From a virus, in IMG/VR virus record IMGVR_UViG_3300000233_000007, positions 1 through 64,000 of that record: a stretch of 64,000 bases of DNA. The stretch is one strand, 5' to 3'. The position numbers were made by a program, and so were the translations under genes. Within the stretch, counting starts at the first letter, position 1. The number at the start of each line of letters is the position of its first letter. Shown piece after piece: positions 858 to 18,818 of the stretch. The notes beneath the pieces are model-generated. The model saw only the letters and a program-made list of their open reading frames with translations. It made no database searches and was not told where the DNA came from.

Positions 858-922
858 ATTATATATTTTTTAAATTAAATTTGTTTAAGAAAACTCTTTT
901 AAAATAAAACTCTTGAATTTTT

Positions 923-1231: not shown

Positions 1232-1256
1232 TTTTTAAAAAATTTTAAAATTTATA

Positions 1257-1976: not shown

Positions 1977-1977
1977 A

Positions 1978-2947: not shown

Positions 2948-3479
2948 TTGAAATTACTAACCAATCTTCTGCTAACAAATCAGGATTTGTAGGAGTATAA
3001 GGAGTAACATATCCTAAATCAGTTTTTAATGCAATATAACCAGAGTAAGGAACTTCTTCTCCAAATTCTTCTCTTGCTACATTAGTTCTTGCTGGATATA
3101 CACCAGGAGCAACATAATACAAGTATCTACTTTTACCTTGAATAACCCAAGATTTTCTTGTAACCTTGTAACCTTCTTTTAATGCTTCTAAAGCATCACT
3201 AAAATCATTTAATACACTTTCTCCACATCTTTCACATGTATCAGGATTACCTGAACATTGTGCAATGTCTTCAATGTTTTCTTCTGATTTTTTAAATAAC
3301 TCTTCTTCAGGAGTATTTTCTACTGTATCAACAATCTCTTCTTGTTCAAGTGATTTTAATAAAGCAGTTGAAAGTAGCAAACCTAAAAATGGATTTTTCA
3401 TTCCAATTTCTTTAATGAAATTTGGATTCACATCTTTAATGTCAATTTCTTGACCATTTTGAATAACTCTTACTTGCAT
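2937..3479 (-). CDS. Hypothetical protein; the C-terminal half has a W/P/D...DW pattern reminiscent of the DUF2829 family
   Basis: ORF 180 aa. CxxC-containing middle segment CSGNPDTCERCGES. Confidence 0.5.
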   Translation of the reverse strand: MQVRVIQNGQEIDIKDVNPNFIKEIGMKNPFLGLLLSTALLKSLEQEEIVDTVENTPEEELFKKSEENIEDIAQCSGNPDTCERCGESVLNDFSDALEALKEGYKVTRKSWVIQGKSRYLYYVAPGVYPARTNVAREEFGEEVPYSGYIALKTDLGYVTPYTPTNPDLLAEDWLVISNEQ

Positions 3480-3482
3480 AAG

Positions 3483-3760
3483 TTAATTTTTAATATTAAT
3501 TTGTCTAAAACTCTTTAAATTTCCAAGCATATTTGCTCTGAAATGTTGTGGAAAAATACAATGTCTTGATTCTACAAGATGTATTGTTCTCATATTAGGA
3601 AATATAGGATTATTTTTACTGTCTTTTATAGATAAACCAAAATGTTTAGTTAATTTATATCTTTCATCATTTGGATTAAATATTGTAAATACATAATCAG
3701 CATCTTCTGCTAAATTCTCTTTTATTATCACAGTTGTTCTTTTAATCAACTGTTTCTATA
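3483..3760 (-). CDS. Replicative DnaB-family helicase, exon 3 (C-terminal part; boundary approximate)
   Basis: ...LAEDADYVFTIFNPNDERY matches the DnaB C-terminal motif EQDADVVMFLYRDEYY. The reading frame opens only 12 codons upstream of the listed ATG, directly after an in-frame stop. Confidence 0.55.
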
Positions 3761-4627
3761 TATTTCTATATAGGATGGACTATATCATCATCTCTATTGA
3801 GATGTTGGGTACTCTTGTCAGTATTATATTCTACTATTAAAGTAGTTTCAACCATTAGTCTCTGAACCTTCACACTTTGTTAAAGGTGTGCTTGGCTGCT
3901 GATTACCTTGCATTTCTGTTTAGGCTTCCCAGCAATTCACCCAATTCCTTTACAACATCACTATTGTAAGGGGCTTATTGAATAATTATTTTCTATTATC
4001 TCTTTTAAATTTACTAAAATAAAATCCTTTTATAGATTTTACATTCATATTGTAATTATCAAACCTATTAATATGATTAGAAATTGAAGTTTTAGAAACA
4101 TTTAACTCTTCAGAAGCAAATTTTACTGATTTATACTCTTTATAAAAAGTATTATCACTATTATAACAATAAATAGTATTATAAAAATTTGTTTTATTTT
4201 CTTCTTTATTAAAATATTCTGTTATTTTTCTTTTCCTAACCATTTCATTATTAACATTAATATTTTTAATTAAGTTTCCTGGTCCAGCATCTACACCATT
4301 TACTAAACTATGTTTAATAAAATGTTTTTCAACTAATTTTTTCTCATAAATATGAGATTCTTCCCAAGAACAATTTAAAATTGTTAATAATTTAATTTTT
4401 GGTCCGATACCATTTTTTAATAAACTTCTTATCCAATTCTCTTTATGAGAATTTGAATAATTATTTTTTGATTTACAAATATGTTGTGAAAGTCTTTTTT
4501 CAAGACTACTTTTTGTTCTTCCAATATACCTTATTTCACAATTATAAGGATTATATAAGCAGTAAATTTTTATTTTCATAATCAATTTTTATATGACTAC
4601 AAAGATAAGTAAAAAATTTCTATTTTC
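3761..4627 (-). mobile_element. Putative group I intron 2 in the helicase gene, carrying GIY-YIG HEG 3986..4585 (boundaries approximate)
   Basis: Non-coding 3750..3985 separates helicase motif H4 (..SDDIKDTG) from ..LAEDAD. It shares 12-14-mers (tctctgaacctt at 3859, cttggctgctgatt at 3891) and a near-identical 3' end with the polymerase intron. Confidence 0.5.
3986..4585 (-). CDS. GIY-YIG homing endonuclease
   Basis: IYCLYNPYNCEIRYIGRT...LEKRLSQH...N: canonical GIY-YIG layout with the Arg and His, then a basic C-terminal DNA-binding half. Confidence 0.7.
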   Translation of the reverse strand: MIMKIKIYCLYNPYNCEIRYIGRTKSSLEKRLSQHICKSKNNYSNSHKENWIRSLLKNGIGPKIKLLTILNCSWEESHIYEKKLVEKHFIKHSLVNGVDAGPGNLIKNINVNNEMVRKRKITEYFNKEENKTNFYNTIYCYNSDNTFYKEYKSVKFASEELNVSKTSISNHINRFDNYNMNVKSIKGFYFSKFKRDNRK

Positions 4628-5402
4628 CAAACCTGTATCTTTAATATCATCAGAAGTAGGATATAATTCATCTTTAGCATGTCTTATTCTATCTACATCA
4701 GTCATACCTCTATTTGTATGTATAATAGGTACAAATGTATAACCACACCAATTTCTTAATTCTACCATATATTCAACCATTTTATCAACAGTTTGTTTCA
4801 TCTGCCAACCTCTCTCATTGATTAGTTTTCTTAAATGGTCCATTATTATGATAGTATATTTTTCTGGATGGTCTGATACATATCCACCTATTCTTGATAC
4901 AACACCTGATTGATAACTAACAAATCTTCCTGATTTTTTAGCATGTTCTTTAAGAAATTTATAAATTCCTGTTGGATTATCTTTTTGTTCAATAAATTTA
5001 ATTAAACCTTTTTTCAATAATTCACCATTTTGAGCATATTCTCCAAATAAAGGAATAATTCTGTTTTCATAAACAACTTTTAATGCTTCTTGAACACTTT
5101 CTTTAACTCTTATAATATTTCCATTATCATCTTGTAATCTACCTCTTAAATAATCAGGAGATAAATCAATAATATTATTTGTAATACCACCAGAAGTATA
5201 AGTAATACCTTCATCTAACTGTATTTTTTCCATACCAAAATCATGGAATAGAAAATAAGCAGCAAAATCAAATTCTTTACTTATTCTATCTAATTCAAAA
5301 GAAAAATAAATCCATTCAACAGGTATATTATTCTGTACTGCATATAGAAAAGGTTGTATTACAAAAGCATAATCTACAAATGTACTCTTACCCAAGAGTT
5401 GT
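4628..5402 (-). CDS. Replicative DnaB-family helicase, exon 2 (RecA-like core; boundaries approximate)
   Basis: Begins ..LLGKSTFVDYAF (second half of Walker A). IIIMDHLRKL is the H3-like motif. ...VPIIHTNRGMTDVDR...SDDIKDTG is the DnaB arginine-finger region. The ORF-track M is a TTG, and an in-frame stop lies 2 codons upstream. Confidence 0.7.
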
Positions 5403-6238
5403 TATCTTAAAGGCTCTTTATCCTTTAATTCTGCAATTTCATTTGTTATAGTTGCAGTTCAGACTATATCTTCTACTCTTTGAGTAGTGCTGATTTCTTG
5501 CACATATTATATTCTCTTTTACAGAGTTTCAATGTGTAGTCGTTTGGCATTTACTAATATATTATTATTAGATTTAGCACAGGATTGTCCACTTCTGGAG
5601 TTTCCCTGTTTAACAGCATTTTACAAGACCAGTTTATATGAGAATATATAACCATTCATTTGTTTGTATTTACCATATAATACTCTTTGTATTCCACTTC
5701 TATCCATACCTAATTGTATAGATGCTTGTCTTATACTTGAATATTCATTAATAAAATTACCTTCTAAATCAGTTTGTATAATTGATTTTGAACCATTTGG
5801 TTTCATTCCTTCTTCAAAAAGTTTTAATCTACTAATAGACATTTTCTTTTTACTTTCTTCTGAAGGAGTATTATTAATTACATCTCTTGTTATATTATAA
5901 ACAGGATTTAATTTATCAACAAAATATTGTTCTCTTTCTAATAAAGATTCTGTACAATATTCTAATACACCAAATTTAAAATTTTCAATACCATATTTAT
6001 TTACTGCTGATTGCAACAAATTATTAGGGTTTTTATTATGATTTAATAAACTAAAATGTTTTGTTTTTCTATTACCTAAATTCATAGAACTTCCAATATA
6101 CATTTCATTATTTACTAAATTCACAATTACATAAACACCTTCATTTTTAAAATTATATATTTCCATATCATTTATTTATTGCAAATATAAAAACTAATTT
6201 TTACATCCACAACAAAATGCACCATTTTCTTTAGCCTT
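5403..6238 (-). mobile_element. Putative group I intron 1 in the helicase gene, carrying GIY-YIG HEG 5621..6166 (boundaries approximate)
   Basis: It interrupts the Walker A box: exon 1 ends ..RIYGVAAAP, exon 2 starts LLGKSTF. DnaB has ..VAARPSMGKTAF. Non-coding structured segment 5403..5620. Confidence 0.55.
5621..6166 (-). CDS. GIY-YIG homing endonuclease
   Basis: GVYVIVNLVNNEMYIGSS...R...H...N motif set. Confidence 0.75.
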   Translation of the reverse strand: MEIYNFKNEGVYVIVNLVNNEMYIGSSMNLGNRKTKHFSLLNHNKNPNNLLQSAVNKYGIENFKFGVLEYCTESLLEREQYFVDKLNPVYNITRDVINNTPSEESKKKMSISRLKLFEEGMKPNGSKSIIQTDLEGNFINEYSSIRQASIQLGMDRSGIQRVLYGKYKQMNGYIFSYKLVL

Positions 6239-6376
6239 TGGTGCAGCAGCAACACCATAAATTCTACCTCTTTGTACTCCATTGATAGATTTAGAAACAT
6301 TAGCTAATCCATCACCCATAGGTAATCCTTTATTACTACCTTCCTGACCTTTTTTGAATTCTTCTATTAGATTCAT
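6239..6376 (-). CDS. Replicative DnaB-family helicase, exon 1 (no N-terminal DnaB domain)
   Basis: GLPMGDGLANVSKSINGVQRGRIYGVAAAP matches DnaB GLPTGFxDLDxLTGGLQPGDLIIVAARP. Downstream residues to the stop at 6194 look intronic. Confidence 0.6.
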
Positions 6377-6927
6377 TATTGCATAGTATTAGTTATAGCT
6401 GTTCTACCTTGTTCTTGTTCAATACTTAATTTGTATTTTTCAATCCAATCAAGTAAATCACTTGTTTTAGTAGCACCATCACCTTTTTCAATAAAATAAT
6501 GTGGAAATCTAATATAGTCTGGGTCTGTATTAAGAAGATACATTCTTGTAGCACCTAATACATCTTCTTTTCTTATATCAGGATTTTTAGCAAATAATTT
6601 TTTCATTCTTGCAGTAGCTTCTCTCACTTTTCCACCTCTACTTGAATTATGTTCTTTAAATGCTTCACAAAAATGAGTTTTAACCCAATCAAAAGCAGTT
6701 TGTTGTCCTTCAAATAATGGAATATTCCATTTATAAGAAGTTACATCACCATTTTTACTTATCTTTTCAGCTTCATAAATATTAGTAATATTCATTCTTT
6801 TTTTAAAATCATCAGGAACATAACTTGGATTATAACCATAGAATAAAGATATTAAATAACATATTCCATCATCTTTCTGAATTCTAAATTCAGTTAAGAT
6901 TTCTAAAATGTCTTCATTTATATTCAT
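6376..6927 (-). CDS. Hypothetical protein, probably replication-associated by position
   Basis: 183-aa ORF. Stop overlaps the helicase start (ATGCAATAATG). Confidence 0.5.
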   Translation of the reverse strand: MNINEDILEILTEFRIQKDDGICYLISLFYGYNPSYVPDDFKKRMNITNIYEAEKISKNGDVTSYKWNIPLFEGQQTAFDWVKTHFCEAFKEHNSSRGGKVREATARMKKLFAKNPDIRKEDVLGATRMYLLNTDPDYIRFPHYFIEKGDGATKTSDLLDWIEKYKLSIEQEQGRTAITNTMQ

Positions 6928-7691
6928 AGTTTTTGTTTTACTAATTCATTTAACTGATAATTTAACTCATGTTCATTATCTATATCAATTTCTGTTTGAT
7001 TTATACAATTTCTAACATCATTAATAGATAAACAAGGTTTATTTAATAAAACATATTCTTCAGCTTTTTCTTTTGTTGAAAAATACTTTCTATCTACACC
7101 ATTACCAGTATGAGTTTGTGAAGCTCTATTTACTTTATGTATTTCACTATTAGTATTTTTTAATGCTCCATAATCATAAACCCAATAATCATCACCTTCA
7201 GAAATATTTACACCATCTTCAGTTTTAAATAAAAAAGAAGTATGTCTAATTGTATTTAAAGGCATAGTTGTACCAGATTTAGCTTGACAAATAATCTTTT
7301 CACCAGGATAAAAATATGTTATTTCTTGAATAGCATAATTAGTCAATTCATCTGTTAAAGAATCTTGAACTTTATCACCAATAGTAAAAACTTTTCCATC
7401 AGATAATCTTTCAACTGAATAAATTGTAACACCATGAGTATTTAATAAAGCTGTAATATACTCTTCACCATGTCCAGTCATATTAGATAATCTACCATCA
7501 TGTTGTTTTAAAATTATTATTTTATAATTCTTTTCAACAACTTCTTCCCAATATTCAGGATAACCTTTTGGTTGAAACCAATTATGATTCCAATAATGAG
7601 CATAATCTTTTTGCATAGTAGGTTTTGATATATAACCTATTTCTGGACTATTTTCAAAAGGTAATTTTTTAATTAATTTGAACTTTTTCAT
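6924..7691 (-). CDS. Hypothetical protein
   Basis: 255-aa ORF overlapping both neighbours by 4 nt. No motif I can name. Confidence 0.5.
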   Translation of the reverse strand: MKKFKLIKKLPFENSPEIGYISKPTMQKDYAHYWNHNWFQPKGYPEYWEEVVEKNYKIIILKQHDGRLSNMTGHGEEYITALLNTHGVTIYSVERLSDGKVFTIGDKVQDSLTDELTNYAIQEITYFYPGEKIICQAKSGTTMPLNTIRHTSFLFKTEDGVNISEGDDYWVYDYGALKNTNSEIHKVNRASQTHTGNGVDRKYFSTKEKAEEYVLLNKPCLSINDVRNCINQTEIDIDNEHELNYQLNELVKQKL

Positions 7692-8800
7692 AATTTAATG
7701 TTTTTAAATCTTATATATTCAACTTTGCTTTTATCAAAATTTTGCAATGCAGATTCAACCCATTTTTCATCTTGAGTTCCAATTAAACATAATACCCAGA
7801 TAGTTGCTTTATAATTAGGTTGGTCCAATAATGTTCTTGCTACTTTTTGAGAAGTTAATCCATTTTTATCTGAATCAGCTTGAACCATAAATAAATGGTC
7901 AATTTCTTTATAAGTAGTACCAACTCCACCAGCATTTACCATAGCAATTTCATCAATTTCACCAGAAATAAATTTATTTAGATATTTATCATCAGTTTTA
8001 CTATGAAAAACATTACTACATAAATACTCTGCTTGTTTAATACCAGAAGAAAATATTAACTTTCTTCCTTGTAAATTATCAATAAGATATTTTGCTGCTT
8101 TAGTTTTTGAATCACTATCATAAACTGACCTCATTCTTGCAAGAATTCTAAATTGTGCATCTTTTCTTTTTTGAAAAATAGCTTTTTGTGCTGAACTACT
8201 TAACCATTTATATTGTTCTTCTTCTGAAGTCATAAATGGTTTATCTTTAGTACCAGCTTTTACAGTTTTTTCTCTACTCATATCAATCTCAATTACTTTT
8301 ATAGTATAATTGGCTAATAAACCAATATCTACTGCTTCATTAATTGATAATTCATATAATATAGGTAGTTTTAAAGACTTGTAAAGGTCTTTTTTAGTTT
8401 CATGTTTAGTTTGAGTTCCTGTCATACTAATAATGTAATCAGCAGTAAGTTTTCCATTGATTATATTAGATAAATTGTTTTCAGTAGCAAATTGTTCTTC
8501 ATCTAAAATAATAAGTTCATAATGACCTTTTATTTTATTTAAAGAAGTCCATGTTACTGTCTTCAATTTATTTAAGAACTTTTTAGCTTTCCAAGTATTA
8601 AATTCTTCTGGTATATCTTCTTCAGCTAATTTAGCTAAAGGAGTTACCCAAAGAATTGATTTTGGATTGTTCTTTTTAATAATATCAATAACAAGTTTAC
8701 TTTTACCTACTCTGGGTGCTAATAACAATCTACCATGAGGTTTCAAATCTAAAGAATCAACTATTTCCTTTTGGATTTTACTCTTTTCTTTGTTTGTCAT
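7688..8800 (-). CDS. SF2 DEAD/DEAH-like ATPase/helicase (UvsW/SNF2-like)
   Basis: Motif I LLLAPRVGKSKL, motif II LILDEEQ, motif III ISMTGTQ. Confidence 0.6.
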   Translation of the reverse strand: MTNKEKSKIQKEIVDSLDLKPHGRLLLAPRVGKSKLVIDIIKKNNPKSILWVTPLAKLAEEDIPEEFNTWKAKKFLNKLKTVTWTSLNKIKGHYELIILDEEQFATENNLSNIINGKLTADYIISMTGTQTKHETKKDLYKSLKLPILYELSINEAVDIGLLANYTIKVIEIDMSREKTVKAGTKDKPFMTSEEEQYKWLSSSAQKAIFQKRKDAQFRILARMRSVYDSDSKTKAAKYLIDNLQGRKLIFSSGIKQAEYLCSNVFHSKTDDKYLNKFISGEIDEIAMVNAGGVGTTYKEIDHLFMVQADSDKNGLTSQKVARTLLDQPNYKATIWVLCLIGTQDEKWVESALQNFDKSKVEYIRFKNIKL

Positions 8801-9030
8801 GCTTTAAATTCTTTTAAATATTTTATGACTACAATGATATACTCTATTTCAGCATTAAAAGACTTATTAAAAGTTTCTTTTATATCTTTAAAAATATTAC
8901 TTTCTTTATCAGTAATAATATTTAAAGGAATTTGAGAATCTTCTAATAAATTATTAATAACAAAATTAGAAGAAGGAGTTGCTTTACCTTCAACTTTTGT
9001 AATTATTATAGGATAACAAGTAAAACTCAT
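8797..9030 (-). CDS. Small hypothetical protein
   Basis: 77-aa ORF in operon context with 4-nt overlaps. Confidence 0.4.
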   Translation of the reverse strand: MSFTCYPIIITKVEGKATPSSNFVINNLLEDSQIPLNIITDKESNIFKDIKETFNKSFNAEIEYIIVVIKYLKEFKA

Positions 9031-9665
9031 ATTTTATGTTCTATTAAATTAATAACCTTGTAAACTTCATCAATATAATATTGATAATCAATTTTAGATT
9101 TTATTTCATCAACAGTAGTTAATTCCATATCATTAACAACAGTACATAAATAACCTGCTTCAATATTAGTATTTCTTGGTTTGATTAAAGATTCTTTATA
9201 TTGCTCATAAGTTCCTAAATAACCATTTTTTACTTCTTTATTAAAATCAGTAATCATTTTTTTAGTTTCTTTTTGAGCTAATGGTGGCATTTCTTTAATT
9301 AAAGTAACACCTGTACCATTTTGAATAAATGTTTTTGAATCTTTATCAAATTGTTGATAACCAGAAACATAATACCTAACAATTCTTTGAACTTCTTCTT
9401 GTGATATTATATTACCATTTTCATCAAGTAATCTTGCATATAATTTATCAGTTCTATTGATTTTAGTTCTTTTAAAGAAATCATAAATATCATTATGATT
9501 CATAATAAAATCTTTAACTGGTATATTATTAACAAAATATGCTTCTAATGCTTTTGGTACTATTAACATAGAGAAATTTTTATGAAGTTCTAATTCTCCT
9601 GGTTCTACTTTATATATAAAAGCAGCACCTTTTCTTTTAGCACTTCCATTAGTCTTAACAGCAAT
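9027..9665 (-). CDS. Family-B DNA polymerase, exon 2 (C-terminal thumb/KxY region; 5' boundary approximate)
   Basis: The frame stays open upstream of the listed ATG to an in-frame stop at ~9675: ...KTNGSAKRKGAAFIYKVEPGELELHKNFSMLIVPKAL.... The KxY-like segment follows motif C of exon 1. Confidence 0.6.
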   Translation of the reverse strand: MAVKTNGSAKRKGAAFIYKVEPGELELHKNFSMLIVPKALEAYFVNNIPVKDFIMNHNDIYDFFKRTKINRTDKLYARLLDENGNIISQEEVQRIVRYYVSGYQQFDKDSKTFIQNGTGVTLIKEMPPLAQKETKKMITDFNKEVKNGYLGTYEQYKESLIKPRNTNIEAGYLCTVVNDMELTTVDEIKSKIDYQYYIDEVYKVINLIEHKI

Positions 9666-10660
9666 GTAATTGTTTCACTTTATCTATATACTTTCATATA
9701 TAGGTGGACTATATCTTTAATTACTTGGTATTTTCTCAATATAATAACCTTTAAATAATACTTTATTAGATTTCTTTTTAAACATAGTTGCAATTACATT
9801 TTGTAATTTCATTTTTTGCAACTCATTATAAAATATATTTTTTATAAATGTCATTCTATTATCATACAAATTATAAGAGTATTTAGTTAAATTTTTAGAC
9901 ATTATTTCAGATTGTTGTTCTTTTCTTGAATGATTATCTTTCCAAGATTTTCTTAATTTTTCTGAATGATTATCTCTCAATCCTTCTTTCCATTCCTTTT
10001 TTAATCTATTTGATATTTTTTCAGAAGTTTTTGGATGAACTATCATATTTGTACTACTATCTTTTCTTAAATTATAACCTTTAGAAGAATCAGTTGTATT
10101 ATAATAATCTATCCAATATAATTCTCTATTTGAAATTAAATTCAAATTCTCAATATATTCAATAACAAAAAATTCAAAATTATCAATACTGTATTTGTTA
10201 ATTGAATTTAAAAAATATGAATTTATATGATTGAAATTTTGTCTATTTATTTCATAAATATATTGATGACATCTATTATAAAAACATTTAGTTTTTCCAA
10301 CATAAAGTTTATTATTTTTTAGGTTTCTTATACCATAAATACCTGATTTGTTCTTTAATAATATATTAGGATTCATTGTGAAATTATTTCAACAAAGATA
10401 CATAATTATTATAACTTATCAAACAAACTTTAATAACTATCTTGCTTTTCCCAGTAATAAATTACCAGTACTCCTTTTCAGGATAGTCTCTGAACCTTAC
10501 CCATAATATTTAAGTTATATTTTAGGGTCTTGGCTGCTGATTGTCCATTCATTCATCTCTTTAATTTTCAAGCATTCACACTCACCTTTTCAAGTCATGT
10601 TGTAGCTTAAAGAGCTTTAGGATATTCCAGCAATTAACAAGATTAAGATGCAAACTTTCA
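9666..10660 (-). mobile_element. Putative group I intron in the DNA polymerase gene, carrying GIY-YIG HEG 9717..10376 (boundaries approximate)
   Basis: Non-coding 10377..10616 holds tctctgaacctt (10487) and cttggctgctgatt (10529), shared with helicase intron 2. The 3' end (9676..9716) is near-identical to 3751..3790. Confidence 0.5.
9717..10376 (-). CDS. GIY-YIG homing endonuclease
   Basis: SGIYGIRNLKNNKLYVGKT...NR..QY...N. Confidence 0.75.
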   Translation of the reverse strand: MNPNILLKNKSGIYGIRNLKNNKLYVGKTKCFYNRCHQYIYEINRQNFNHINSYFLNSINKYSIDNFEFFVIEYIENLNLISNRELYWIDYYNTTDSSKGYNLRKDSSTNMIVHPKTSEKISNRLKKEWKEGLRDNHSEKLRKSWKDNHSRKEQQSEIMSKNLTKYSYNLYDNRMTFIKNIFYNELQKMKLQNVIATMFKKKSNKVLFKGYYIEKIPSN

Positions 10661-12137
10661 CATCTTTGATAATCATTTTGGAATACATTACATCTTCAAG
10701 TTCTAAACCAGTAAGAGTTTCCCATCTTCTGCATATAGATTTCATCTGCTCTACATAATTCTTATGAACTCTAACAGTCATACCATCAGTATTAATTTGT
10801 ATCATAGTACAATCAGGAATTTCTTCCATAAATCTTTCTGATAACATACATAATAATAATTGTCCATTAACTGTTGTTTTCATAGTGTAAGCAGGGTCAT
10901 ATAATGCTGAATATTCAGAATTACTTTTACCATAAGAACCATTTAATGCTAATTTCAATGCTAAATTTTCTGCTGGATGTGTTTTCTTATTATAACCTTG
11001 TCTTTCTATGTATATACTTTCATATATATCACAAAATTCTATACCTAAATGTTCAGGATAAAATTTATTTTTAATAGCAAGATTAGGATAATAAGAAGCT
11101 ACATCTACATCCCAAATCTCATATTCATCATCACTAACATAAATACCAGGACTTACAGAACCATGTATTCCACCAACACCAAAATCATATTGAAATCCTT
11201 TGTAAATAACATTTAATGTCTGTTGTTTACCATTTTTCTTTTCAACATAATAATGAGGTTCTAATGAAATTAATTCATCAAATGGAATCTCACTAAATAC
11301 ACCTTTAGTTTCAGTAATTGTTCTTGATTTAAACCATTCAAGTATTTTCTGAAATGGTTCAGTAGTAAATCTAACATAAGGGAATATTACATCATTAAGA
11401 TTAATAAATTCTCTTTTGGTATTTTTGATTTTCTTTCTAACCCCTCTGTCAGTTTCATACTTATCATAAACAACATCTTCTCCTAAATCAGTAATAATTT
11501 TACTTATCAATATATATTCTCCAATTTTAGTTGAATTAAAATTAGTAAAGTCTATTTTGTATTGTGGACTTAATTTTTCTCTTAATTCAATTTCTGGTAA
11601 TGTTTCAACATATACTAATTCAGTAGCATCTACATCATTATCACAATAATCAATTACATTTTGTATTTGTTCATTTGATAATATTGTTCCTGGTTCATAA
11701 GGGAGTTCTCTTATATTCTGCAATCTCAAGTTAAATTGTAACAATTTCAATGAAGTCATTTTTGCTTTATTGTCATAATGATTTATTTTAAACAAATCAA
11801 TTTGCTTTTTAATATAATCATATTCTTTAAAATAAACTTTCTTACCTTTAATAATACTTGTTGAATAATTAAATAATTGACTACAAAAATCTCTTCCTCT
11901 TAATGTCCATAGTTTCATTATAGCATGATGTAATACTGGATAATCATAGTATAAACTATTAAATCCAACCATTTCTTCTACTTCATACTTTAACCATAAA
12001 GCAATATCATTTCTATCATCACCTAATGGACTAACTTGAAATCTTCTTCTTTCTCCTGTTTCACAATGTTTAGCACAAATTAAAAATAGATTAGGATAAA
12101 TTTCTATATCATACACCCATCTTTTTTCATTATTCAT
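10661..12137 (-). CDS. Family-B DNA polymerase (phi29-like compact type), exon 1: exonuclease plus palm motifs A-C
   Basis: Exo I YDIEIY near the N-terminus. Exo II YCDNDVDAT. Motif A DVASYYPN (DxxSLYPS). Motif B KLALNGSYGKSN (KxxxNSxYG). Motif C INTDGMTV (DTDS). The last ~20 residues before the stop look intronic. Confidence 0.75.
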
Positions 12138-12720
12138 AATATTCTAATTTAATGTTTTTTGAAAAATATTTACTTTTCTGTTTTCTTTCTTTACCTATAT
12201 AATAATTAAATAATTTTGGAGTAATTTTAAAAAAATCTGCTGCTTCAACACATGATTCAAATATTTTAATTAATTTGTTATCAATATAATATGCAATTTT
12301 TTTTAATTTAGCTTTTCTAAATTCAATTATATTTTCAGGAACTTTACCTTTAAGTGATTTTGATATTTTTAATTTATGTTCATTAGATAATTTCTTAAAA
12401 CTTCTATTAACACTATCAGAAGCATCTTTAACATTATAAAGTTCTGTTTTTTGTATAGATATATAATATTTTTCTTTTTCTGTTAAATTTTCTTTTACAC
12501 AATACTCTAATATAGAAAAAGAAAAATTTTCTTTTCCATATTTATTATAAGAATGTTGTAAATGAGAATTAGAATGTTTATTATGATTTAATTCAAATCT
12601 ATGATAAATTCCTCTTCTGTAAACATTTTTACTTTGCCCAACATAAACTTTATTATTTAAAAGATTAGTAATAAGATATATACCTGATTTTTCTTGTATT
12701 TGTTTTTTTGATATTTTCAT
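12130..12720 (-). CDS. GIY-YIG homing endonuclease, free-standing; its stop overlaps the polymerase start
   Basis: SGIYLITNLLNNKVYVGQS...YRRGIYH...N. Confidence 0.75.
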   Translation of the reverse strand: MKISKKQIQEKSGIYLITNLLNNKVYVGQSKNVYRRGIYHRFELNHNKHSNSHLQHSYNKYGKENFSFSILEYCVKENLTEKEKYYISIQKTELYNVKDASDSVNRSFKKLSNEHKLKISKSLKGKVPENIIEFRKAKLKKIAYYIDNKLIKIFESCVEAADFFKITPKLFNYYIGKERKQKSKYFSKNIKLEYYE

Positions 12721-12766
12721 TTTACAAATTTACAAAAAAACTTCTATATCCCAAATCCATCTCATA

Positions 12767-13045
12767 CTATAATCTTGTTATATTATTGATATAGATATTA
12801 TTATACCTTTTACCATTCTTTTCAGAACCTTCAAATGAAAACTCAATTTCAACTGTTGAATTTTCATATAAATTATCTAACAATTTTAACTTTGCATTTC
12901 TTACTTCAGGATATAAAACCTGTTCATCAATAGTTTCTATTGTTAAAACTCTTTTATACAAATCAGGAATTCCTGTTCTTTGTATATGCACTAAATCACC
13001 TATTTCAGTGATTACTCCCTTGATTTTCAGATACTCTTTTCTCAT
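12767..13045 (-). CDS. Small hypothetical protein (possibly OB-fold)
   Basis: 92-aa ORF. 4-nt overlap with the Dda-like helicase start. Confidence 0.45.
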   Translation of the reverse strand: MRKEYLKIKGVITEIGDLVHIQRTGIPDLYKRVLTIETIDEQVLYPEVRNAKLKLLDNLYENSTVEIEFSFEGSEKNGKRYNNIYINNITRL

Positions 13046-14370
13046 ACTTTATATAAAATTAATAATTCACTTGCTCTTGTTACTGCTGTGTATAACAATC
13101 TTTTCTTTTCTTTTTCATTTTGGTTGATATTCAAATTCTTAATATTAACAATTGCTTGTTTATATGTAGAACCTTGACTTTTATGAACTGTAATTGCATG
13201 ATTATATTTCAAATCAGCAAATTGTTCAACAAATTCAAAATAGTCTTTCCAACCAATATCAGCAAACTTGGCTTTATCTTTCAATAACTTAACAAGTTTA
13301 TCAAATTCTTTTTCAGAATCTTCATGTATAACAATTATATTATCTACCCAACCAGCTTTTGTAAAATCACTCTCTTCCATATATATAGGATTTATAGAAT
13401 AACATTTTAAAGTTATATACCTATATTTTGGTTCTTCATTTTCAGTTGGGTCATCAACTCCTGTCTTGTTAGATAAATATTGAAATTGTTTTTCAAAAAC
13501 TCTACTTGATTTAACTAATATTTCTTGATTAGTAAAATAATCTTCTTTATATGGTGCATTAAAAACTAAAGTTTCTCCATCTTCAATTTTACTTGGTTTA
13601 CCATAAATTCTTTCTCTTACTTTTTTATTAATTTTATCTACCTCATTATTAGTATATGCAAGGTATTTGAGTTCATCAGTACCATTTATTTTTGCTAAAG
13701 TTTCAATAATTTTATCTTCATCATAAGTATAAATATATCCACCTATTTCACTTCTTTGTGCTTCTTTTGTGTTTATAAGTGATAAATTTCTACTTAAATC
13801 AATGATAGGATTACCCCCTTTTTGTCTTACTATTTCTGTAAGTTCAACTTCAGGATAATCTCTCATAAATACTGGTGATTCCTCTTCATTTACAGGATTT
13901 AATTGTTTATCATCACCAATAAAAATAACTTTACAATTATTTATAGTGGCATGAGCTTCTATATAATCCAAAAGTTCCTCGTTAACCATTGATGCTTCAT
14001 CTATTATAAATAGTTTTACATTTTTTAATGGTGGATATTTTGGGTCAAAAGAAGGTTTAAAAGAAATATCACCTGTTTTGTAATCAATATTTCTTTTTAA
14101 TTTTAGTGCAGCATGAGTAGTAATAAACTGAAGATTATCATATTTTTGAACCTTATCCTTTAATACTGAAACTGCTTTATTTGTAGGTGCAGAACAATAT
14201 ATATGTTCAGATGATTTGATATTCTTTGATAAAATACTAATTAAAGTATCAACCATATATGTTTTTCCTACTCCTGCTGAACCTTTTATTCTTAATCTAT
14301 CACTCCTATTAAGAATAAACAAACTTTCATCAAGTCTTTGTTGCTGATGGTCTGTTAATGCCATAATCAT
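13042..14370 (-). CDS. SF1 Dda/RecD-like DNA helicase
   Basis: Walker A GSAGVGKT, motif II FIIDEASMV, motif V-VI ITVHKSQGSTY / LYTAVTRA. Confidence 0.8.
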   Translation of the reverse strand: MIMALTDHQQQRLDESLFILNRSDRLRIKGSAGVGKTYMVDTLISILSKNIKSSEHIYCSAPTNKAVSVLKDKVQKYDNLQFITTHAALKLKRNIDYKTGDISFKPSFDPKYPPLKNVKLFIIDEASMVNEELLDYIEAHATINNCKVIFIGDDKQLNPVNEEESPVFMRDYPEVELTEIVRQKGGNPIIDLSRNLSLINTKEAQRSEIGGYIYTYDEDKIIETLAKINGTDELKYLAYTNNEVDKINKKVRERIYGKPSKIEDGETLVFNAPYKEDYFTNQEILVKSSRVFEKQFQYLSNKTGVDDPTENEEPKYRYITLKCYSINPIYMEESDFTKAGWVDNIIVIHEDSEKEFDKLVKLLKDKAKFADIGWKDYFEFVEQFADLKYNHAITVHKSQGSTYKQAIVNIKNLNINQNEKEKKRLLYTAVTRASELLILYKV

Positions 14371-14617
14371 TTATTTTTTCAAATGCTAAATTCATCTTTG
14401 AATTATCAGCAAAGTGGATAGATTTAACTCTATTAATCATCCAATCACTAAACTCCATTCTTTCTTTAACATATACTACTGATTTAACAAGTATTCCTTT
14501 TTCTTGTTCATTATTTAATTTGCTCATAAAACTCTTTTTTAATTGATAATGCAAAAAAAATAGAGTATCACAAAAGTAATACTCTATTTTCCTATAAAAA
14601 CTCATAATTTTGAACAC
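14330..14617 (-). CDS. Hypothetical protein
   Basis: 95-aa ORF overlapping the helicase start. Confidence 0.35.
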   Translation of the reverse strand: MFKIMSFYRKIEYYFCDTLFFLHYQLKKSFMSKLNNEQEKGILVKSVVYVKERMEFSDWMINRVKSIHFADNSKMNLAFEKINDYGINRPSATKT

Positions 14618-14653
14618 TAATAAGTTTTTTTTAAAAAACTCTTGTATTAAATA

Positions 14654-15283
14654 TTACAATGATTGTCCTTCTGGGATATGTACTGTACTATTTAATTCAG
14701 CTTTGATTACTGGACTTGCATAAAAATCTGCTGGGTCAACATTTCTTGAATCTACATCTTCAGCAGCAGTTTTGCTAAAAGCAATTCTTCTGTACTGAAC
14801 TTTTCCATCCTTTAATGCTAACATACCTGCATTTTCAGCTCCTTCAGGAACTCTAACAACCTGTCTATTAGCAAATGTATCAATAGTTACATTTGGTAAA
14901 TCTGGATTGTCAATTGCATGTTGTTCTGTATCAGCAATAATTGGCTTGTTAGATAAAATTCTATACAAGTTAGCTTCAGGGAACTTTTTAAGTTGCTCCA
15001 CTACACTTTCTCTTGTACTTCCTTCTGGTACATCAATCCAAGCAATTCTTGTTTCTTTGTTTGGAAATGATTTTTCTTCAAAACCAAAATCAGCCATAGC
15101 AAAAATATTTTCATTTAATGAATTAGCCACAGACTTTGTTGGATAGTAACTTACTGTTGTTACAGTCTGTTTTAGCTCTGCTGTTAATGTGCCTTCTTTT
15201 TGGTAATCAGATTTACTAACTTTTGATACTGATAAAGCTGATACTTCTACTTCTTTTCTGATGTTATTATTTTTAGTTTCCAT
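14654..15283 (-). CDS. Hypothetical protein (GC-richer, Ala/Val/Pro-rich)
   Basis: 209-aa ORF. Its composition is unlike the neighbouring Lys/Asn/Ile-rich proteins. Confidence 0.55.
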   Translation of the reverse strand: METKNNNIRKEVEVSALSVSKVSKSDYQKEGTLTAELKQTVTTVSYYPTKSVANSLNENIFAMADFGFEEKSFPNKETRIAWIDVPEGSTRESVVEQLKKFPEANLYRILSNKPIIADTEQHAIDNPDLPNVTIDTFANRQVVRVPEGAENAGMLALKDGKVQYRRIAFSKTAAEDVDSRNVDPADFYASPVIKAELNSTVHIPEGQSL

Positions 15284-15379
15284 CTTTTTAAAAATTTTAA
15301 ATTAATACTTAAATTTGAATTGTTACACTTTCAGATGTTAAAGTGTGAAAACCTATTTATTCCCAATATGTCAATGAAC

Positions 15380-15700
15380 TTATTTTTTACCAAGTAATTT
15401 ACCAAAGATTCTTTTAAAGAATCCTGGTTCTTCTGGTTGTGATTGTTTTTTAATCTCTTTCATCATTTTTTCATAGCTTTTTCTCTCTTCTGGTATGTAT
15501 TCATTAGCTTTTTGTAATGCTAATACTCTTTTATAACTAATACCAGGACCTTTAACTGGATAATTTCCATAAGGATTAGGAGTAATTGCATATCTACCTG
15601 ATGATTTGATTCTTTTATAGAAATCAAAATTGAAAGTAACTTTATTCCATACTGGAATAAGATTCATTCTTTGTATTTTTCTTGTAAATGATTGTGCCAT
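15380..15700 (-). CDS. Small basic hypothetical protein
   Basis: 106-aa ORF, Lys/Arg-rich. Confidence 0.45.
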   Translation of the reverse strand: MAQSFTRKIQRMNLIPVWNKVTFNFDFYKRIKSSGRYAITPNPYGNYPVKGPGISYKRVLALQKANEYIPEERKSYEKMMKEIKKQSQPEEPGFFKRIFGKLLGKK

Positions 15701-15876
15701 CTTTATAATTGTGTTATGGTTGTATTTGTTTGTGTAAAATATTCTACTGCTTTATCATAAGCAATTCCTAAAAGAAAAATATCTCTTTCATTTCTGATAT
15801 AGATAACTATTTCCTTATTCTTTAGTAAATGTATATAACATTGTACTATTGCAATCATTTCTTCTACTAATTTCAT

Positions 15877-16419
15877 TTATTTAAGTAATAATAGTTTATA
15901 ATTACCAGAATAACCTAAAGGCATTAAATCATCTTTATTAACATAAAGTCCAAAATATCCTTCAAGAAATGGATATAAATTAACTGGTTCATCACCAAAT
16001 ACATAAGATGGTACTACTCCATATTTATATTTCCAATCATTTGAATCATTTATTAATGGCTGAAAAATACCATCTGGTTCATATAATTTAGACATTAAAA
16101 TATCTTCTTTATTTTCTGACATACCATGATAAATAAATAATGGTTTATCATTCATAAAACAATATATTGCTTCTGAATATTGACCTTTACCAACAAATGT
16201 TTTCCATTTACTTTTTTCCATTTTTGTTGGATTTACCATAGGAGCAAGAACAACAAAGTCTGCTTCTTTTAAATCTTTATCACTATATGTTCCTGATTTG
16301 TATTCTGTAACTTCAAAACCAGAACCAATAAGAGATTTTCTTATTGGTTCAATTATTGTGTCTGATAATTGTAATGATTTACTTAAATAAACTTTTAATG
16401 GTTTATTTGTTTTTATCAT
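15877..16419 (-). CDS. Nucleoside 2-deoxyribosyltransferase-like (NDT-fold) protein
   Basis: N-terminal KVYLSKSL strand, ADFVVLAP, then GKGQYSEAIYCFMNDKPLFIY resembling the NDT DSGTAFExGyAxAxGKPV segment. A weak, pattern-level match. Confidence 0.45.
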   Translation of the reverse strand: MIKTNKPLKVYLSKSLQLSDTIIEPIRKSLIGSGFEVTEYKSGTYSDKDLKEADFVVLAPMVNPTKMEKSKWKTFVGKGQYSEAIYCFMNDKPLFIYHGMSENKEDILMSKLYEPDGIFQPLINDSNDWKYKYGVVPSYVFGDEPVNLYPFLEGYFGLYVNKDDLMPLGYSGNYKLLLLK

Positions 16420-16705
16420 TGAACATATATTTTAATGTTTCATTAGCAATTGCAATTTCAGCATCAATTAATTTAATATAAACTAATGCTTTTTGATAAT
16501 CATTTGCCCAAGATTCAAGTTTTGTTTCACTTGTTTCTACTGTAATCATTTCTAATTCTTCTTTTTTAGCTAATAGAGAATCTCTTTTGGCATCAAGATT
16601 ATCAACTAATCTTTCTTGATTTCTTTTTAATTGTCTTGCAATTCTTTCTGCTGCTTTTTGATTTAACTCACCTTTTTTAGCTGTTAAAATGTTTAAATTT
16701 TTCAT
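16403..16705 (-). CDS. Small coiled-coil protein
   Basis: 100-aa ORF with heptad-like Lys/Glu/Leu periodicity. Confidence 0.45.
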   Translation of the reverse strand: MKNLNILTAKKGELNQKAAERIARQLKRNQERLVDNLDAKRDSLLAKKEELEMITVETSETKLESWANDYQKALVYIKLIDAEIAIANETLKYMFNDKNK

Positions 16706-16767
16706 TGTTTTAAAGTTTTAGATATTAATATAAATGTTTGTATATTTTTGTGTTTTTGAAAGTAGAA

Positions 16768-16782
16768 GAAAAGCTGGTTATT
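16768..16782. repeat. Iteron-like 15-mer GAAAAGCTGGTTATT, copy 1; followed by its partial inverted complement CAGCTT at 16791
   Basis: Exact 15-mer repeated at 17086. The 10-mer core is inverted at 17277. Confidence 0.7.
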
Positions 16783-17085
16783 ATGTATAACAGCTTGATT
16801 ATTAAATAGTTAAATAATATATGTGTATTTTATTCTTATGAGTTTACTGTCATTTCAGATACACAAATAAATAGCAGTAATATAATATCTTATACTTTCC
16901 GAAGGTATAAAATACATATTGTTTATCTCTATTTCATAGCAGTTATTACTTAATATAAATAGTTCAGTTATCTATATTGTTCATTGAATACTTGCATCCA
17001 TACCAAGTGCCTTATTATTATTTATTATAAAGAAAAAGCTATTAATATAATATCTTATGATATTTTAGCTTTATTTAAAGTTAAG

Positions 17086-17100
17086 GAAAAGCTGGTTATT
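17086..17100. repeat. Iteron-like 15-mer GAAAAGCTGGTTATT, copy 2
   Basis: Exact repeat of 16768..16782. The second 16-mer family TAATATAATATCTTAT also occurs twice (16878, 17043). Confidence 0.7.
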
Positions 17101-17276
17101 TGTAGTGGAACACACACTCAACACATCAAATTAATCAGTTAAATAACTTATCTCTGCTAAATAAGATAATTATTTAATAAAACTAATAGTTTATGTTAAT
17201 TTTGCCTAATGGTAAGTGAGTGTTATTGACTTCTTTATATTACAATATTACATTCTAATATTTTAATACTACAAAT

Positions 17277-17291
17277 TAACCAGCTTTATAT
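17277..17291. repeat. Inverted copy (TAACCAGCTTTATAT) of the AAGCTGGTTA iteron core
   Basis: Reverse complement of AAGCTGGTTA. Confidence 0.6.
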
Positions 17292-17390
17292 ATTTTTAGG
17301 TGTTAATCAAATTCATCATCATATTATCTACCACATCTGAATACTCCTTATTTGACTAAACACCTTAATTATAAGGTATAACATATTAGT

Positions 17391-17419
17391 CTCAAAATTA
17401 GTGTGGGTTTTTAGGGTAG
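17391..17419. repeat. G-rich ~30-nt motif CTCAAAATTAGTGTGGGTTTTTAGGGTAG, copy 1
   Basis: Identical 29-mer at 17884. Degenerate copies at 18044 and 18333. Confidence 0.8.
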
Positions 17420-17556
17420 GATATAATGATAAAAAATAATATGACATAAGGTGCTTGGTTTTAGTAGTGTTGTTAAATAAAAAATAACTAAAATAATAAT
17501 ATTAGTTAGGAATTAGTAAGGGTTTTTAAGATATGCTGAATGAGAAAATAAATAAA

Positions 17557-17574
17557 GGGAGCATTTCTGCTCCC
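17557..17574 (-). terminator. Intrinsic terminator for minus-strand gene 17581..17853
   Basis: GGGAGCA-TTTC-TGCTCCC hairpin immediately 3' of the stop, followed on the minus strand by TTTATTTATTTT. Confidence 0.6.
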
Positions 17575-17580
17575 AATATA

Positions 17581-17853
17581 CTACAATACTTCTTCTGCTG
17601 GGTTATACATAACAATTCTGATTGCTGTGTATTCTCCTTGTTCTCCTGTTCTTACAGCTTCCTGTAATCCCAGAGAATCAATGTTTGGGTCAGCTTTCAG
17701 TTTTGCAACAGTATCTTTGTGTAAAGATACAGCAACTCTGTTTTCATTATCCCAATGTCTCATCCACTCTGTGTTGTTACCTTCAGCATCTTTTGCTGTG
17801 TTAAGGTTGAATTGTGGAATTCCCAATTTTGATTTGATGTCTGCTAATTTCAT
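17581..17853 (-). CDS. Small GC-richer hypothetical protein (90 aa), isolated in the switch region
   Basis: Clean ORF. Motif copy 2 sits 31 nt upstream. Terminator hairpin just downstream. Confidence 0.6.
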   Translation of the reverse strand: MKLADIKSKLGIPQFNLNTAKDAEGNNTEWMRHWDNENRVAVSLHKDTVAKLKADPNIDSLGLQEAVRTGEQGEYTAIRIVMYNPAEEVL

Positions 17854-17883
17854 AATGTAAATATTTAAAATTAATAATTAATA

Positions 17884-17912
17884 CTCAAAATTAGTGTGGG
17901 TTTTTAGGGTAG
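17884..17912. repeat. G-rich ~30-nt motif, copy 2 (exact)
   Basis: Read on the minus strand it ends ...CACTAATTTTGAG, which contains TAATTTTG (fits the Bacteroidota -7 TAnnTTTG consensus), 31 nt before the ATG at 17853. Confidence 0.8.
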
Positions 17913-18043
17913 TTGATGGATAAAACAAAAAGGGATAACCCCTTAATGTCTATCATAGTTTATTACTTCTGCTATATTAGAAGTTAAACTACCATCTGGT
18001 AATTGATACATTGTTTTCATAATATCCTGCTTAATAGTTAATA

Positions 18044-18070
18044 CTCAATATTTGTTTGGGTTTTTAGACA
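18044..18070. repeat. G-rich motif, degenerate copy (CTCAATATTTGTTTGGGTTTTTAGACA)
   Basis: Shares TTAATACTCAA..T.TG.GGGTTTTTAG with copy 2. Confidence 0.5.
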
Positions 18071-18332
18071 CTTTGCTAAACCAATAGATGCTTAATACAG
18101 AACTGCTTGATAGTAGAATAAACATTGAGCAGTTGTAGATTTGAGATTCTTCTTTTGTCATAGCTACTATGTTACCATTAACATCAACAATATCAGTATG
18201 ATTGTAGATAGCACATACAATTGATGAGTAGAATATAGCAATTAGTAGAATAGACAAAGAGATTATTTTCAATACATTATTTATGGCTGGAAGATTTAAG
18301 TTACACATTGAAAGGTAGGGGGATGTTCCCAT
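18045..18332 (-). CDS. Questionable small hydrophobic ORF (95 aa)
   Basis: Its start abuts motif copy 3 with zero spacing, and motif copy 18044 overlaps its 3' end. May be non-coding. Confidence 0.25.
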   Translation of the reverse strand: MGTSPYLSMCNLNLPAINNVLKIISLSILLIAIFYSSIVCAIYNHTDIVDVNGNIVAMTKEESQIYNCSMFILLSSSSVLSIYWFSKVSKNPNKY

Positions 18333-18365
18333 CTCAAGATTGGTGTGGGTGTTTGGGTAGGGTAG
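18333..18365. repeat. G-rich motif, copy 3 (CTCAAGATTGGTGTGGGTGTTTGGGTAGGGTAG)
   Basis: Same architecture as copies 1 and 2 with substitutions. Confidence 0.6.
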
Positions 18366-18425
18366 CTCACACCTTCATTTTATTTCTCAAAAAAAATTTT
18401 ATGGTAAAAATTTTCAGGCATAAAA

Positions 18426-18450
18426 AAATCCTTATAGTTCAGATAAGGAT
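18426..18450 (-). terminator. Hairpin AATCCTTAT-AGTTCAG-ATAAGGATT with a T-run on the minus strand (A-run on plus)
   Basis: Perfect 9-bp stem, 7-nt loop. Minus-strand reading is followed by TTTTTTTATGCC. Confidence 0.4.
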
Positions 18451-18695
18451 TTTGATTAATATAATATGAGAGAAAACTTCAACAAAATGTTTAAAAAGAA
18501 AAGAACCAAAAGAAAAACTATATATTTATGGCTTATGTTCTTTCAGAACTTATGTCTTACTATTTGTCTGCCCTGGGGGGCAGCATAGTAAAACTATGTT
18601 TGGCAAAGGTAGTCTTTTTTTCTGACATATTCAATAGTTTTAATGTTAAATTTTATAAAAGTTATTAACAAGCTATAATTAATCAAATCCTGGTA

Positions 18696-18736
18696 CTTTA
18701 CTATTTACTATTTACTATTTACTATTTATAGTAAAC
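18696..18736. repeat. Tandem heptamer array (CTATTTA)x4-5, ending in an inverted TAGTAAA
   Basis: ctttactatttactatttactatttactatttatagtaaac. Confidence 0.7.
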
Positions 18737-18769
18737 AACAAAATAAAAAATATTTAATTTTATTATGTA

Positions 18770-18796
18770 TTTGTATTAATATTTTTATTAACTTTG
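18770..18796 (+). promoter_or_regulatory. Candidate Bacteroidota-type promoter (TTTG ... TAACTTTG) for the plus-strand late operon
   Basis: TAACTTTG at 18789..18796 fits TAnnTTTG, 23 nt before the ATG at 18819. The upstream TTTG at 18770 has a 15-nt spacer, shorter than the 19-21 consensus. Confidence 0.3.
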
Positions 18797-18818
18797 CTTC
18801 AATTTTAAATGAATAAAT

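Follow-up and report, generated by a model that had tools for sequence, protein, structure and literature searches.

The DNA analysed here comprises positions 1 to 64,000 of the IMG/VR virus record IMGVR_UViG_3300000233_000007 (the window, 64,000 nucleotides), and our subject is an apparently non-coding gap in it, at 16706-17580. The window belongs to a crAss-like phage of the Flavobacterium-phage type with a GC content of 26%, whose major capsid protein is nearest to those of the Flavobacterium psychrophilum phages FpV4 and Fpv1-3 (35% identity). crAss-like phages are among the most abundant phages, and their early programme is poorly understood. The replication module, with a Dda-like helicase and a DNA polymerase among its genes, occupies 114-18332 on the minus strand, and the late module, which includes the gene of a 4381-aa protein, starts at 18819 on the plus strand. 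The original prediction placed the gap between these divergent modules, which is wrong: both of its neighbours, the gene of a 100-aa protein at 16403-16705 and an early gene of a 90-aa protein at 17581-17853, lie on the minus strand, and the strand switch is found 750 bp away, at 18333-18818. On one side of the gap lies a cluster of immediate-early mini-genes and on the other lie the replication genes, all on the minus strand. The gap is a composite of intergenic elements heading the early/replication module, and its centrepiece is probably a self-contained gene for a non-coding RNA (ncRNA) of about 300 nt, from ~17376 to ~17077 on the minus strand, referred to here as ncRNA-1.

That the gap carries no gene for a protein of appreciable size was rightly noticed, as its longest open reading frame (ORF) has 52 aa (TTG start, plus strand) and the next 39 aa. 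Its GC content is 23%, as compared to 26% in the window, and an independent Logan assembly (L004) matches window 10403-17419 at 100% identity. Along the minus strand, the terminator of the 90-aa gene is followed by a degenerate and then a perfect copy of a 26-nt motif, a 5' hairpin and a 211-nt domain (17290-17080), and these by a second conserved block (element 2, 17021-16801), a hairpin with U's (16796-16771), a leader box (copy A) and the 100-aa gene. The features of the first part, which contains ncRNA-1, are as follows:

17557-17574, minus strand: intrinsic terminator of the upstream 90-aa gene, GGGAGCAGAAATGCTCCC then TTTATTTATT, from a terminator scan
17511-17533, minus strand: degenerate copy of the promoter-like motif, AAAAACCCTTACTAATT, repeat family D3
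17390-17415, minus strand: copy 1 of the 26-nt promoter-like motif, a perfect copy, CCTAAAAACCCACACTAATTTTGAGA
17298-17365, minus strand: predicted 5' hairpin P0, AGGUGUUUAGUCAAAU ... AUUUGAUUAACACCU, from folding
17080-17290, minus strand: core domain of ncRNA-1, 211 nt, from homologs and independent folds
17268-17287 (5' arm) with 17088-17106 (3' arm), minus strand: predicted closing helix P1, 19 bp
within the core domain, minus strand: predicted small hairpin P1a
17225-17237, minus strand: conserved unpaired UAAAGAAGUCAAU, in RNA form UAAAGAAGUNAAU, between P1 and P2
17218-17223 with 17114-17119, minus strand: predicted helix P2, ACACUC/GAGUGU
within the core domain, minus strand: predicted long irregular hairpin P3
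17077-17087, minus strand: U-rich tail

Homologs of the ncRNA-1 core were found at 5856-6054 in contig L158, at 450-656 in L139 and at ~1477-1660 in L342. The first two came from an IMG/VR scan with the core of the promoter-like motif, and L342, a more diverged fourth copy, from contigs encoding homologs of the 90-aa protein. Over 464 nt, window 17483-17037 is 67% identical to L158/L146 (E 3e-17). In all four sequences the order is the same, with a terminator, the promoter-like motif, a hairpin of ~60 nt, a domain of ~200 nt, a U-tract, a leader box and the next gene. This gene varies, coding for a 76-aa protein, a 92-aa protein, another small ORF or being missing altogether, while the upstream gene is that of the 90-aa protein or, in L139, of a 113-aa protein. 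Because the flanking genes differ between phages, the unit is not the leader of one particular gene. In L158, which is the same contig as L002, it lies ~11 kb upstream of the homolog of the 100-aa gene.

Folded singly, the four sequences arrive at the same plan, with a P1 of 19-20 bp, P1a, the unpaired UAAAGAAGUNAAU, P2 and a long P3. Compared with shuffled controls, the z-scores of the domain are -5.9, -5.0, -5.3 and -4.7 in the sense orientation, and -4.9, -3.6, -1.3 and -6.2 in the antisense orientation. In three of the four the antisense fold is thus the weaker one, an outcome to be expected where the minus strand makes use of G-U pairs. Such folding energies below those of shuffled sequences, together with the strand asymmetry, point to a structured ncRNA gene. 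The base of the P0 stem, GGUGUU/AACACC, is kept in L342 around a different interior, and the corresponding hairpins of L158 and L139 are similar to P0 in size and different in sequence.

In line with a conserved structure, the helices change in both strands. In P1, a G-C pair before CUGG is replaced by A-U, and UUUG/CAAA in the window corresponds to UAUG/CAUA in L158 and to GGUG/CACC in L139; in P2, an A-U pair is turned into U-A in L139. L342 has a wholly different P1 of 20 bp, GGGAUGUAUUUUUGCAACAC / GUGUUGC…CAAAAAUACAUCCC followed by UUUUUAUCC (UUUUU), with a folding energy of -25 kcal/mol. Cognate P1 duplexes range from -23 to -28 kcal/mol and those with swapped arms from -10 to -19 kcal/mol, with cognate arms outpairing non-cognate ones by 5-15 kcal/mol. 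In a covariance model (CM) alignment of three sequences, 78% of the cells are paired, versus 34-46% when the partners are slid, and six pairs show double changes, a count reached in 24 of 500 shuffles. The structure therefore appears to be maintained by compensatory substitutions, with a significance that is modest for a set of four sequences. The original prediction had considered an ncRNA driven by the motif at 17391, and this part of it gains support from a region that is conserved in three other phage contigs with the same strand-specific fold and with compensatory changes.

The search for further homologs was made with the CM filters switched off, as the default filters had missed L158, itself a training sequence. 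It yielded no more homologs in Cellulophaga phage phi14:2, in relatives bearing a transfer-messenger RNA (tmRNA) or in seven other contigs encoding the 90-aa protein. An internal pattern search recovered only the known homologs from IMG/VR and JGI and nothing real from GTDB genomes, and the gap has no DNA similarity to INPHARED phages in near or distant mode. We found no conserved small ORF through ncRNA-1, where the indels between homologs are not multiples of three. A hidden gene with recoded stop codons is ruled out, since TAA, TAG and TGA are present in all six frames and no stop reassignment would rescue an ORF. A pseudogene of the cargo found in relatives (107-aa protein, RNA ligase, LAGLIDADG, PRTase, and proteins of 76, 74, 92 and 109 aa) was likewise rejected, as none of these gave a tblastn signal.

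The motif near 17391 is genuine. Its four copies in the window, where chance would give none, lie within 17390-18357, exclusively on the minus strand. The other three (17908, 18068 and 18357) each lie ~30 nt ahead of a small minus-strand ORF, two of them after a terminator. Its core, AAAACCCWCACTWATTT, is found 32-36 nt before small early ORFs (…AG TATTAAT…ATG) in many related crAss-like contigs, including L003, L131, L142, L144, L155, L156, L165 and L188, and may serve as a family-wide, promoter-like marker of early transcription units. We infer that the motif is an early promoter. It fits poorly to both the Bacteroidetes -33/-7 consensus and the sigma-70 consensus. Downstream of copy 1 there are two -10-like hexamers, ACTAAT at 17388-17383 and TATAAT at 17373-17368; a sigma-70-like match of 11/12 spans 17395-17368. 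Degenerate motif copies in the same relative place as that at 17511-17533 are found in L342 and L338, and terminators equivalent to that of the 90-aa gene follow the homologous gene in L158, L139/L314 and L342.

The repeats on which the original prediction of an origin was based all exist. Both copies of the 15-mer GAAAAGCTGGTTATT, at 16768 and 17086, and both of the 16-mer TAATATAATATCTTAT, at 16878 and 17043, are exact. The inverted copy at 17277 belongs to a core, AGCTGGTTA, that is found at 16772 and 17090 on the plus strand and at 17277 on the minus strand, and the palindromic hairpin at 16771-16796 has 10 bp with one bulge (-7.2 kcal/mol). The three copies of the core are the only ones in 64 kb, all within the gap, where 0.04 are expected by length. 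The longest exact direct repeat in the gap has 16 nt (at least 16 nt in 0.5% of 1000 dinucleotide shuffles), and nine 12-mers are repeated, compared to a shuffle mean of 0.47, a count matched in none of 1000 shuffles. What these repeats are follows from the remaining features of the gap:

17086-17100, plus strand: 'iteron' copy 2; read on the minus strand, it supplies the 3' arm of P1 and the start of the U-tract (AATAACCAGCTTTTC)
17030-17076, minus strand: leader-module copy B, …ATAAGATATTATATTAATAGCTTTTTCTT, holding the 16-mer copy at 17043-17058
16801-17021, minus strand: element 2, 76% identical to L339 3708-3934 (E ~1e-17)
16771-16796, minus strand: local hairpin, AAGCUGUUAU…AUAACCAGCUU then UUUCUUCUACUUUC, terminator-like
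16768-16782, plus strand: 'iteron' copy 1, carried by the hairpin 16771-16796
16706-16732, minus strand: leader-module copy A, with box TATATTAATATCTAAAACTT at 16713-16732, 7 nt before the ATG (16705) of the 100-aa gene

Positions 17088-17106 and their inverted copy at 17268-17287 together make up an inverted repeat of 19 bp that has a single bulge, AAAGCTGGTTA(A)TTTGTAGT / ACTACAAATAACCAGCTTT; the 'inverted core' and one 'iteron' are the two arms of the closing helix P1 and not initiator-binding sites. The other 'iteron' is part of a partial duplication of ~130 nt (16697-16825 versus 17014-17146), which encompasses a terminator/leader module composed of CCAGCTTTT, 40-43 nt, TATTAATAGCYAAAACTT, 7-14 nt and ATG. 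The same module precedes unrelated genes twice in L158 and twice in L139/L314, with CCAGCUUUU always serving as the 3' strand of a helix and U's coming next. The 16-mers are portions of the TATTAAT leader box. In copy B, ATA stands at the position of the ATG and no gene follows, whereas in relatives the next gene has its ATG 7-14 nt downstream of the box. P1 and the hairpin 16771-16796 have stems with 3-6 G-C pairs, followed by UUUUCCUU or UUUCUUCU, and the terminator scan called neither the former, which encloses 160 nt, nor the latter, which has a bulge. A simple terminator in L344, AAAAAGUGGG..CCCACUUUUU, resembles the outer part of P1. Scanned against the sequence collections, the bare 15-mer gave single chance matches only, and the loose gapped pattern TGTAGTA..AAAGAAGT mostly chance matches. 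Outside ncRNA-1, the other 370 bp of the gap are the remnant and partial duplicate of this terminator/leader module, plus element 2. Repeats in AT-rich phage gaps can thus be arms of RNA helices or terminator/leader modules instead of iterons, and a false origin call is removed.

Within element 2, which in L339 has its counterpart between a promoter copy and a paralog of the 90-aa gene, we detected neither a significant fold (z +0.3 and -1.0) nor protein remnants. Its 16-mer copy, at 16878-16893, represents a leader box in degenerate form, and the element also holds, in the window, a C(UUCG)G loop at 16899-16904. We also observed in it a conserved mini-ORF of six codons, MDASIQ* in the window and MEARTQ* in L339.

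Of the two readings put forward in the original prediction, an ncRNA and an iteron-bearing origin, the conserved fold supports the former, and the latter is left unsupported. A replication origin in the gap, be it with initiator-bound iterons or as a transcription-primed R-loop in AT-rich DNA in the style of the T7 primary origin, T4 oriF/oriG or ColE1 RNA II, is in our view very improbable. The cumulative GC skew has its broad minimum at 16.5-18.1 kb, 16700-17100 is the most AT-rich DNA nearby (20-22.5% GC), a strong promoter-like motif is directed into this stretch, a family-A-like DNA polymerase and helicases are encoded on the same strand, and in the prototypic crAssphage OriFinder-type predictions place origins near the start of the replication strand (PMC10983915). 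Yet the skew minimum is flat over 1.6 kb and elsewhere the skew follows the coding strand, so that it neither supports nor excludes an origin here, and no initiator gene is adjacent. With lambda ori, P1 oriR and plasmid iterons the gap shares an AT-rich, ORF-free stretch with repeated 15-nt words near replication genes, but iterons are expected as at least three direct repeats that are clustered and regularly spaced, and the gap has two direct copies, at a distance of 318 bp, plus a single inverted one, with spacings of 190-318 bp, unphased and unclustered, the inverted one pairing with a direct one as strands of the 19-bp helix. Their sequence is free where the structure is kept: the arms change compensatorily in L158 and L139 and are wholly replaced in L342 with the pairing retained, as expected of an RNA helix or a terminator and not of an initiator-binding iteron. 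The remaining copies belong to the terminator/leader module, which stands before unrelated genes. With transcript-primed origins (T7 phi1.1A/B, T4 oriF/oriG, ColE1 RNA II) the gap has in common a possibly tandem promoter, a structured transcript and very AT-rich DNA, but the AT-rich spacer downstream of the RNA is not conserved, being missing in L158, L139 and L342, where a gene directly follows.

Somewhat better placed, though still unlikely, is a cis-acting leader or attenuator, in which the RNA would be the structured 5' part of the replication-operon mRNA, and P1 and the hairpin 16771-16796 conditional terminators. Read-through would then require the polymerase to have been modified, either by a phage factor made early or by the RNA itself (put/nut-type antitermination), and would time the expression of the replication genes. 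The unit does lie, on the same strand as both, directly after the immediate-early mini-genes and directly before the replication genes, the two similar helix/U-tract modules are arranged serially, 318 nt apart, their short U-tracts suggest weak, regulatable terminators, and in relatives the next gene begins ~75 nt after P1. But the downstream gene is a different one in every phage, near relatives without the domain keep the promoter and leader module (L338), a long closing helix with a 5' hairpin is typical of stable stand-alone RNAs, and no Rfam similarity to known antiterminator RNAs was found. As little credence as to an origin is given to a functionless gene-loss scar in an early region that is hypervariable, in which case the gap would consist of decayed genes and of intergenic modules that were duplicated, and the helix would be a chance or selfish inverted repeat resembling a miniature inverted-repeat transposable element (MITE). 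The region is indeed hypervariable, with relatives carrying unrelated cargo between the homologs of the 90-aa and 100-aa genes (~11 kb in L158/L002), the ATG of leader copy B is gone, one of units A and B partially duplicates the other and for element 2 no significant fold was obtained; for parts of 16706-17076 the scar reading can still hold. Four lineages, on the other hand, share the core domain, with a fold that is specific to the strand and with substitutions that compensate each other, remnants of the relatives' proteins are not detectable in the gap, and a MITE is ruled out, as the element occurs once, in a syntenic position, and contains nested helices as well as G-U pairs.

Favoured over these three is an RNA that is stable, made early and active in trans, its partner most likely being a protein or a ribonucleoprotein; this we consider the probable explanation. 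What the analysis establishes for ncRNA-1 is that it is conserved and structured, with a strand bias and compensatory changes, and that it stands independently of the genes next to it. We infer its transcription, the ends of the RNA, termination at P1 and action in trans. Transcription would start from the family-wide promoter-like motif at 17415-17390, and the RNA would fold into the 5' hairpin and then the ~210-nt domain, whose first and last 19-20 nt would pair as P1. Since P1 is directly followed by a U-rich tract, it would probably also act as the terminator, shielding both RNA ends, and the unpaired UAAAGAAGUNAAU, presented between P1 and P2, would be the likely site of contact with a partner. 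Several observations weigh against this explanation. The U-tract that P1 is followed by (UUUUCCUU) is a short one, and an intrinsic terminator does not typically enclose an insert of 160 nt as P1 does; read-through into the 100-aa gene, by which the RNA would become a long 5' leader, may occur. The close relatives L337, L338, L340, L343 and L344 are without the domain, which is thus dispensable, and in L338 the promoter and leader module are kept in its absence. L342 folds at least as well in antisense (z -6.2 versus -4.7), no pairing targets of the unpaired motif were found near start codons in the window, and with only four distinct homologs the covariation statistics are weak (the 24 of 500 shuffles given above), in an alignment that misplaces the inner P1 of two sequences and thereby understates the pairing.

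Known RNA families offer no match. An Rfam 15 scan of 16650-17650 returned chance-level matches only (<15 bits), and ARAGORN and Rfam, run on the window, gave no tRNA, tmRNA or intron for ncRNA-1. One parallel in position is tmRNA (RF00023), whose genes lie in the early module of relatives (L003 11097-11471, L005 4953-5367, L006 5157-5657 and L007 644-1142), in L005-L007 350-650 nt upstream of the homolog of the 100-aa gene. Both RNAs are thus found in the same neighbourhood and on the same strand, measure ~300-500 nt and have pairing 5' and 3' ends, but the RNA of the window has no tRNA-like domain, GGGG start, GGUUCGA T-loop or CCACCA-type end. No tmRNA was found in the 64-kb window or in the L158/L002 contig stretches, and a divergent tmRNA was ruled out by ARAGORN, by cmscan at E ≤ 10 and by an nhmmer profile of four phage tmRNAs, all without a match.

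A second parallel is found in phi14:2 (L127, NC_021806), the only one of these phages with a studied transcriptome, where the replication module is wholly early and two long intergenic regions near its start (g004-g005 and g005-g006) are transcribed co-directionally, early, persistently and at a high level, with their function unexplained (Drobysheva et al., bioRxiv 10.1101/2020.03.07.982082). Like ncRNA-1, these early long non-coding RNAs (lncRNAs) come from a long ORF-free stretch a few small genes into the early/replication module, on its strand, in a crAss-like phage of Flavobacteriia. They differ in that they have no sequence or CM similarity to the window, that one of the regions has a tmRNA gene, and that their expression was measured. 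ncRNA-1 would accordingly be a positional analogue of the phi14:2 lncRNAs and not a sequence homolog. The tmRNA gene in question, at 4031-4502 on the plus strand of phi14:2, is recognised by ARAGORN and Rfam (46 bits versus a gathering threshold of 47, E 7e-16), with the tag GSSVQKLAMVA, and falls inside the g005-g006 region reported as an abundant early lncRNA; at least one phi14:2 'lncRNA' is thus probably a phage tmRNA.

In shape, ncRNA-1 is reminiscent of 6S RNA-type rods, which likewise have a closing stem formed by the ends, an extended terminal stem and, between the two, a large and asymmetric internal loop in which one conserved strand is left unpaired. It differs from them in that no Rfam 6S model matches, including those of Flavobacteria and Bacteroidales, and in that its loop is strongly asymmetric; binding of RNA polymerase by ncRNA-1 is pure speculation. 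That ncRNA-1 represents a new family of abundant early RNAs in the tmRNA slot of its sister phages, decoying a host machine (the ribosome-rescue/translation apparatus or, 6S-like, RNA polymerase) as part of the crAss-like host take-over, seems to us improbable. As a sequence-based assignment, ncRNA-1 appears to be an uncatalogued, narrowly distributed, structured early RNA gene accompanied by modular terminator/leader repeats: a candidate RNA family that is absent from Rfam, supported by structure and located at the same genomic position as the early lncRNAs of phi14:2.

Among the neighbours of the gap, the 90-aa early protein has 63 homolog clusters, no Pfam or PHROG annotation and no match in GTDB genomes. 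Several relatives have 2-4 paralogs of it in tandem, every one with a motif copy of its own (L003 6001-7720, L339 3001-4748 and L344 2486-3193), and the window has a single copy. Relatives first found by way of the 100-aa protein (62-67% identity) carry unrelated cargo ahead of it, without similarity to the gap. In the nearest full-length relative, L002, we observed an ORF-free stretch of 745 nt with a LAGLIDADG endonuclease ORF behind it (3973-5119); tmRNA and intron models found no match there, and the stretch is possibly a further RNA gene or a degenerate intron. The ends of the Logan contigs L004 and L341 coincide exactly with a motif copy, a sign that these repeats may undergo recombination or vary in copy number. 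In distant relatives, candidates in which a promoter copy seemed to be followed by no ORF turned out to be leaders of ~100 nt, unusually long, of a conserved ORF of ~56 aa (M.KRNRILVGRLVAS…), found after a motif copy in many relatives (e.g., L141 4343, L156 8948, L178 4700, L150 7445, L136 4015 and L003 10485).

Further observations concern other parts of the window and minor elements of the gap. Inside P0 (17340-17305, minus strand) a Shine-Dalgarno-like AAGGAG lies 7 nt before ATG TGG TAG, a mini-ORF of two codons, which is followed by an ORF of eight codons (MMMNLINT*), an arrangement that shows no conservation in the homologs. A CM match at window 2-178 was rejected as a homolog, being a perfect palindrome: positions 1-172, starting at the first base of the window, form a perfect inverted repeat with 84-nt, 100% complementary arms and a 4-nt loop, which overlaps the 3' end of the ORF at 114-857 (minus strand) and could be a giant hairpin, a terminator or an assembly artefact at the contig end. 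At 12130-12720 (minus strand), an ORF of 196 aa resembling GIY-YIG homing endonucleases (Pfam match on the identical L004 gene) overlaps the start of the 506-aa DNA polymerase ORF (10617-12137). Finally, a group I intron (Rfam RF00028, 89 bits) is found at 3756-3993 on the minus strand, between two TTG-start ORFs at 3483-3749 and 3986-4585, which are probably the two exons of one split gene.

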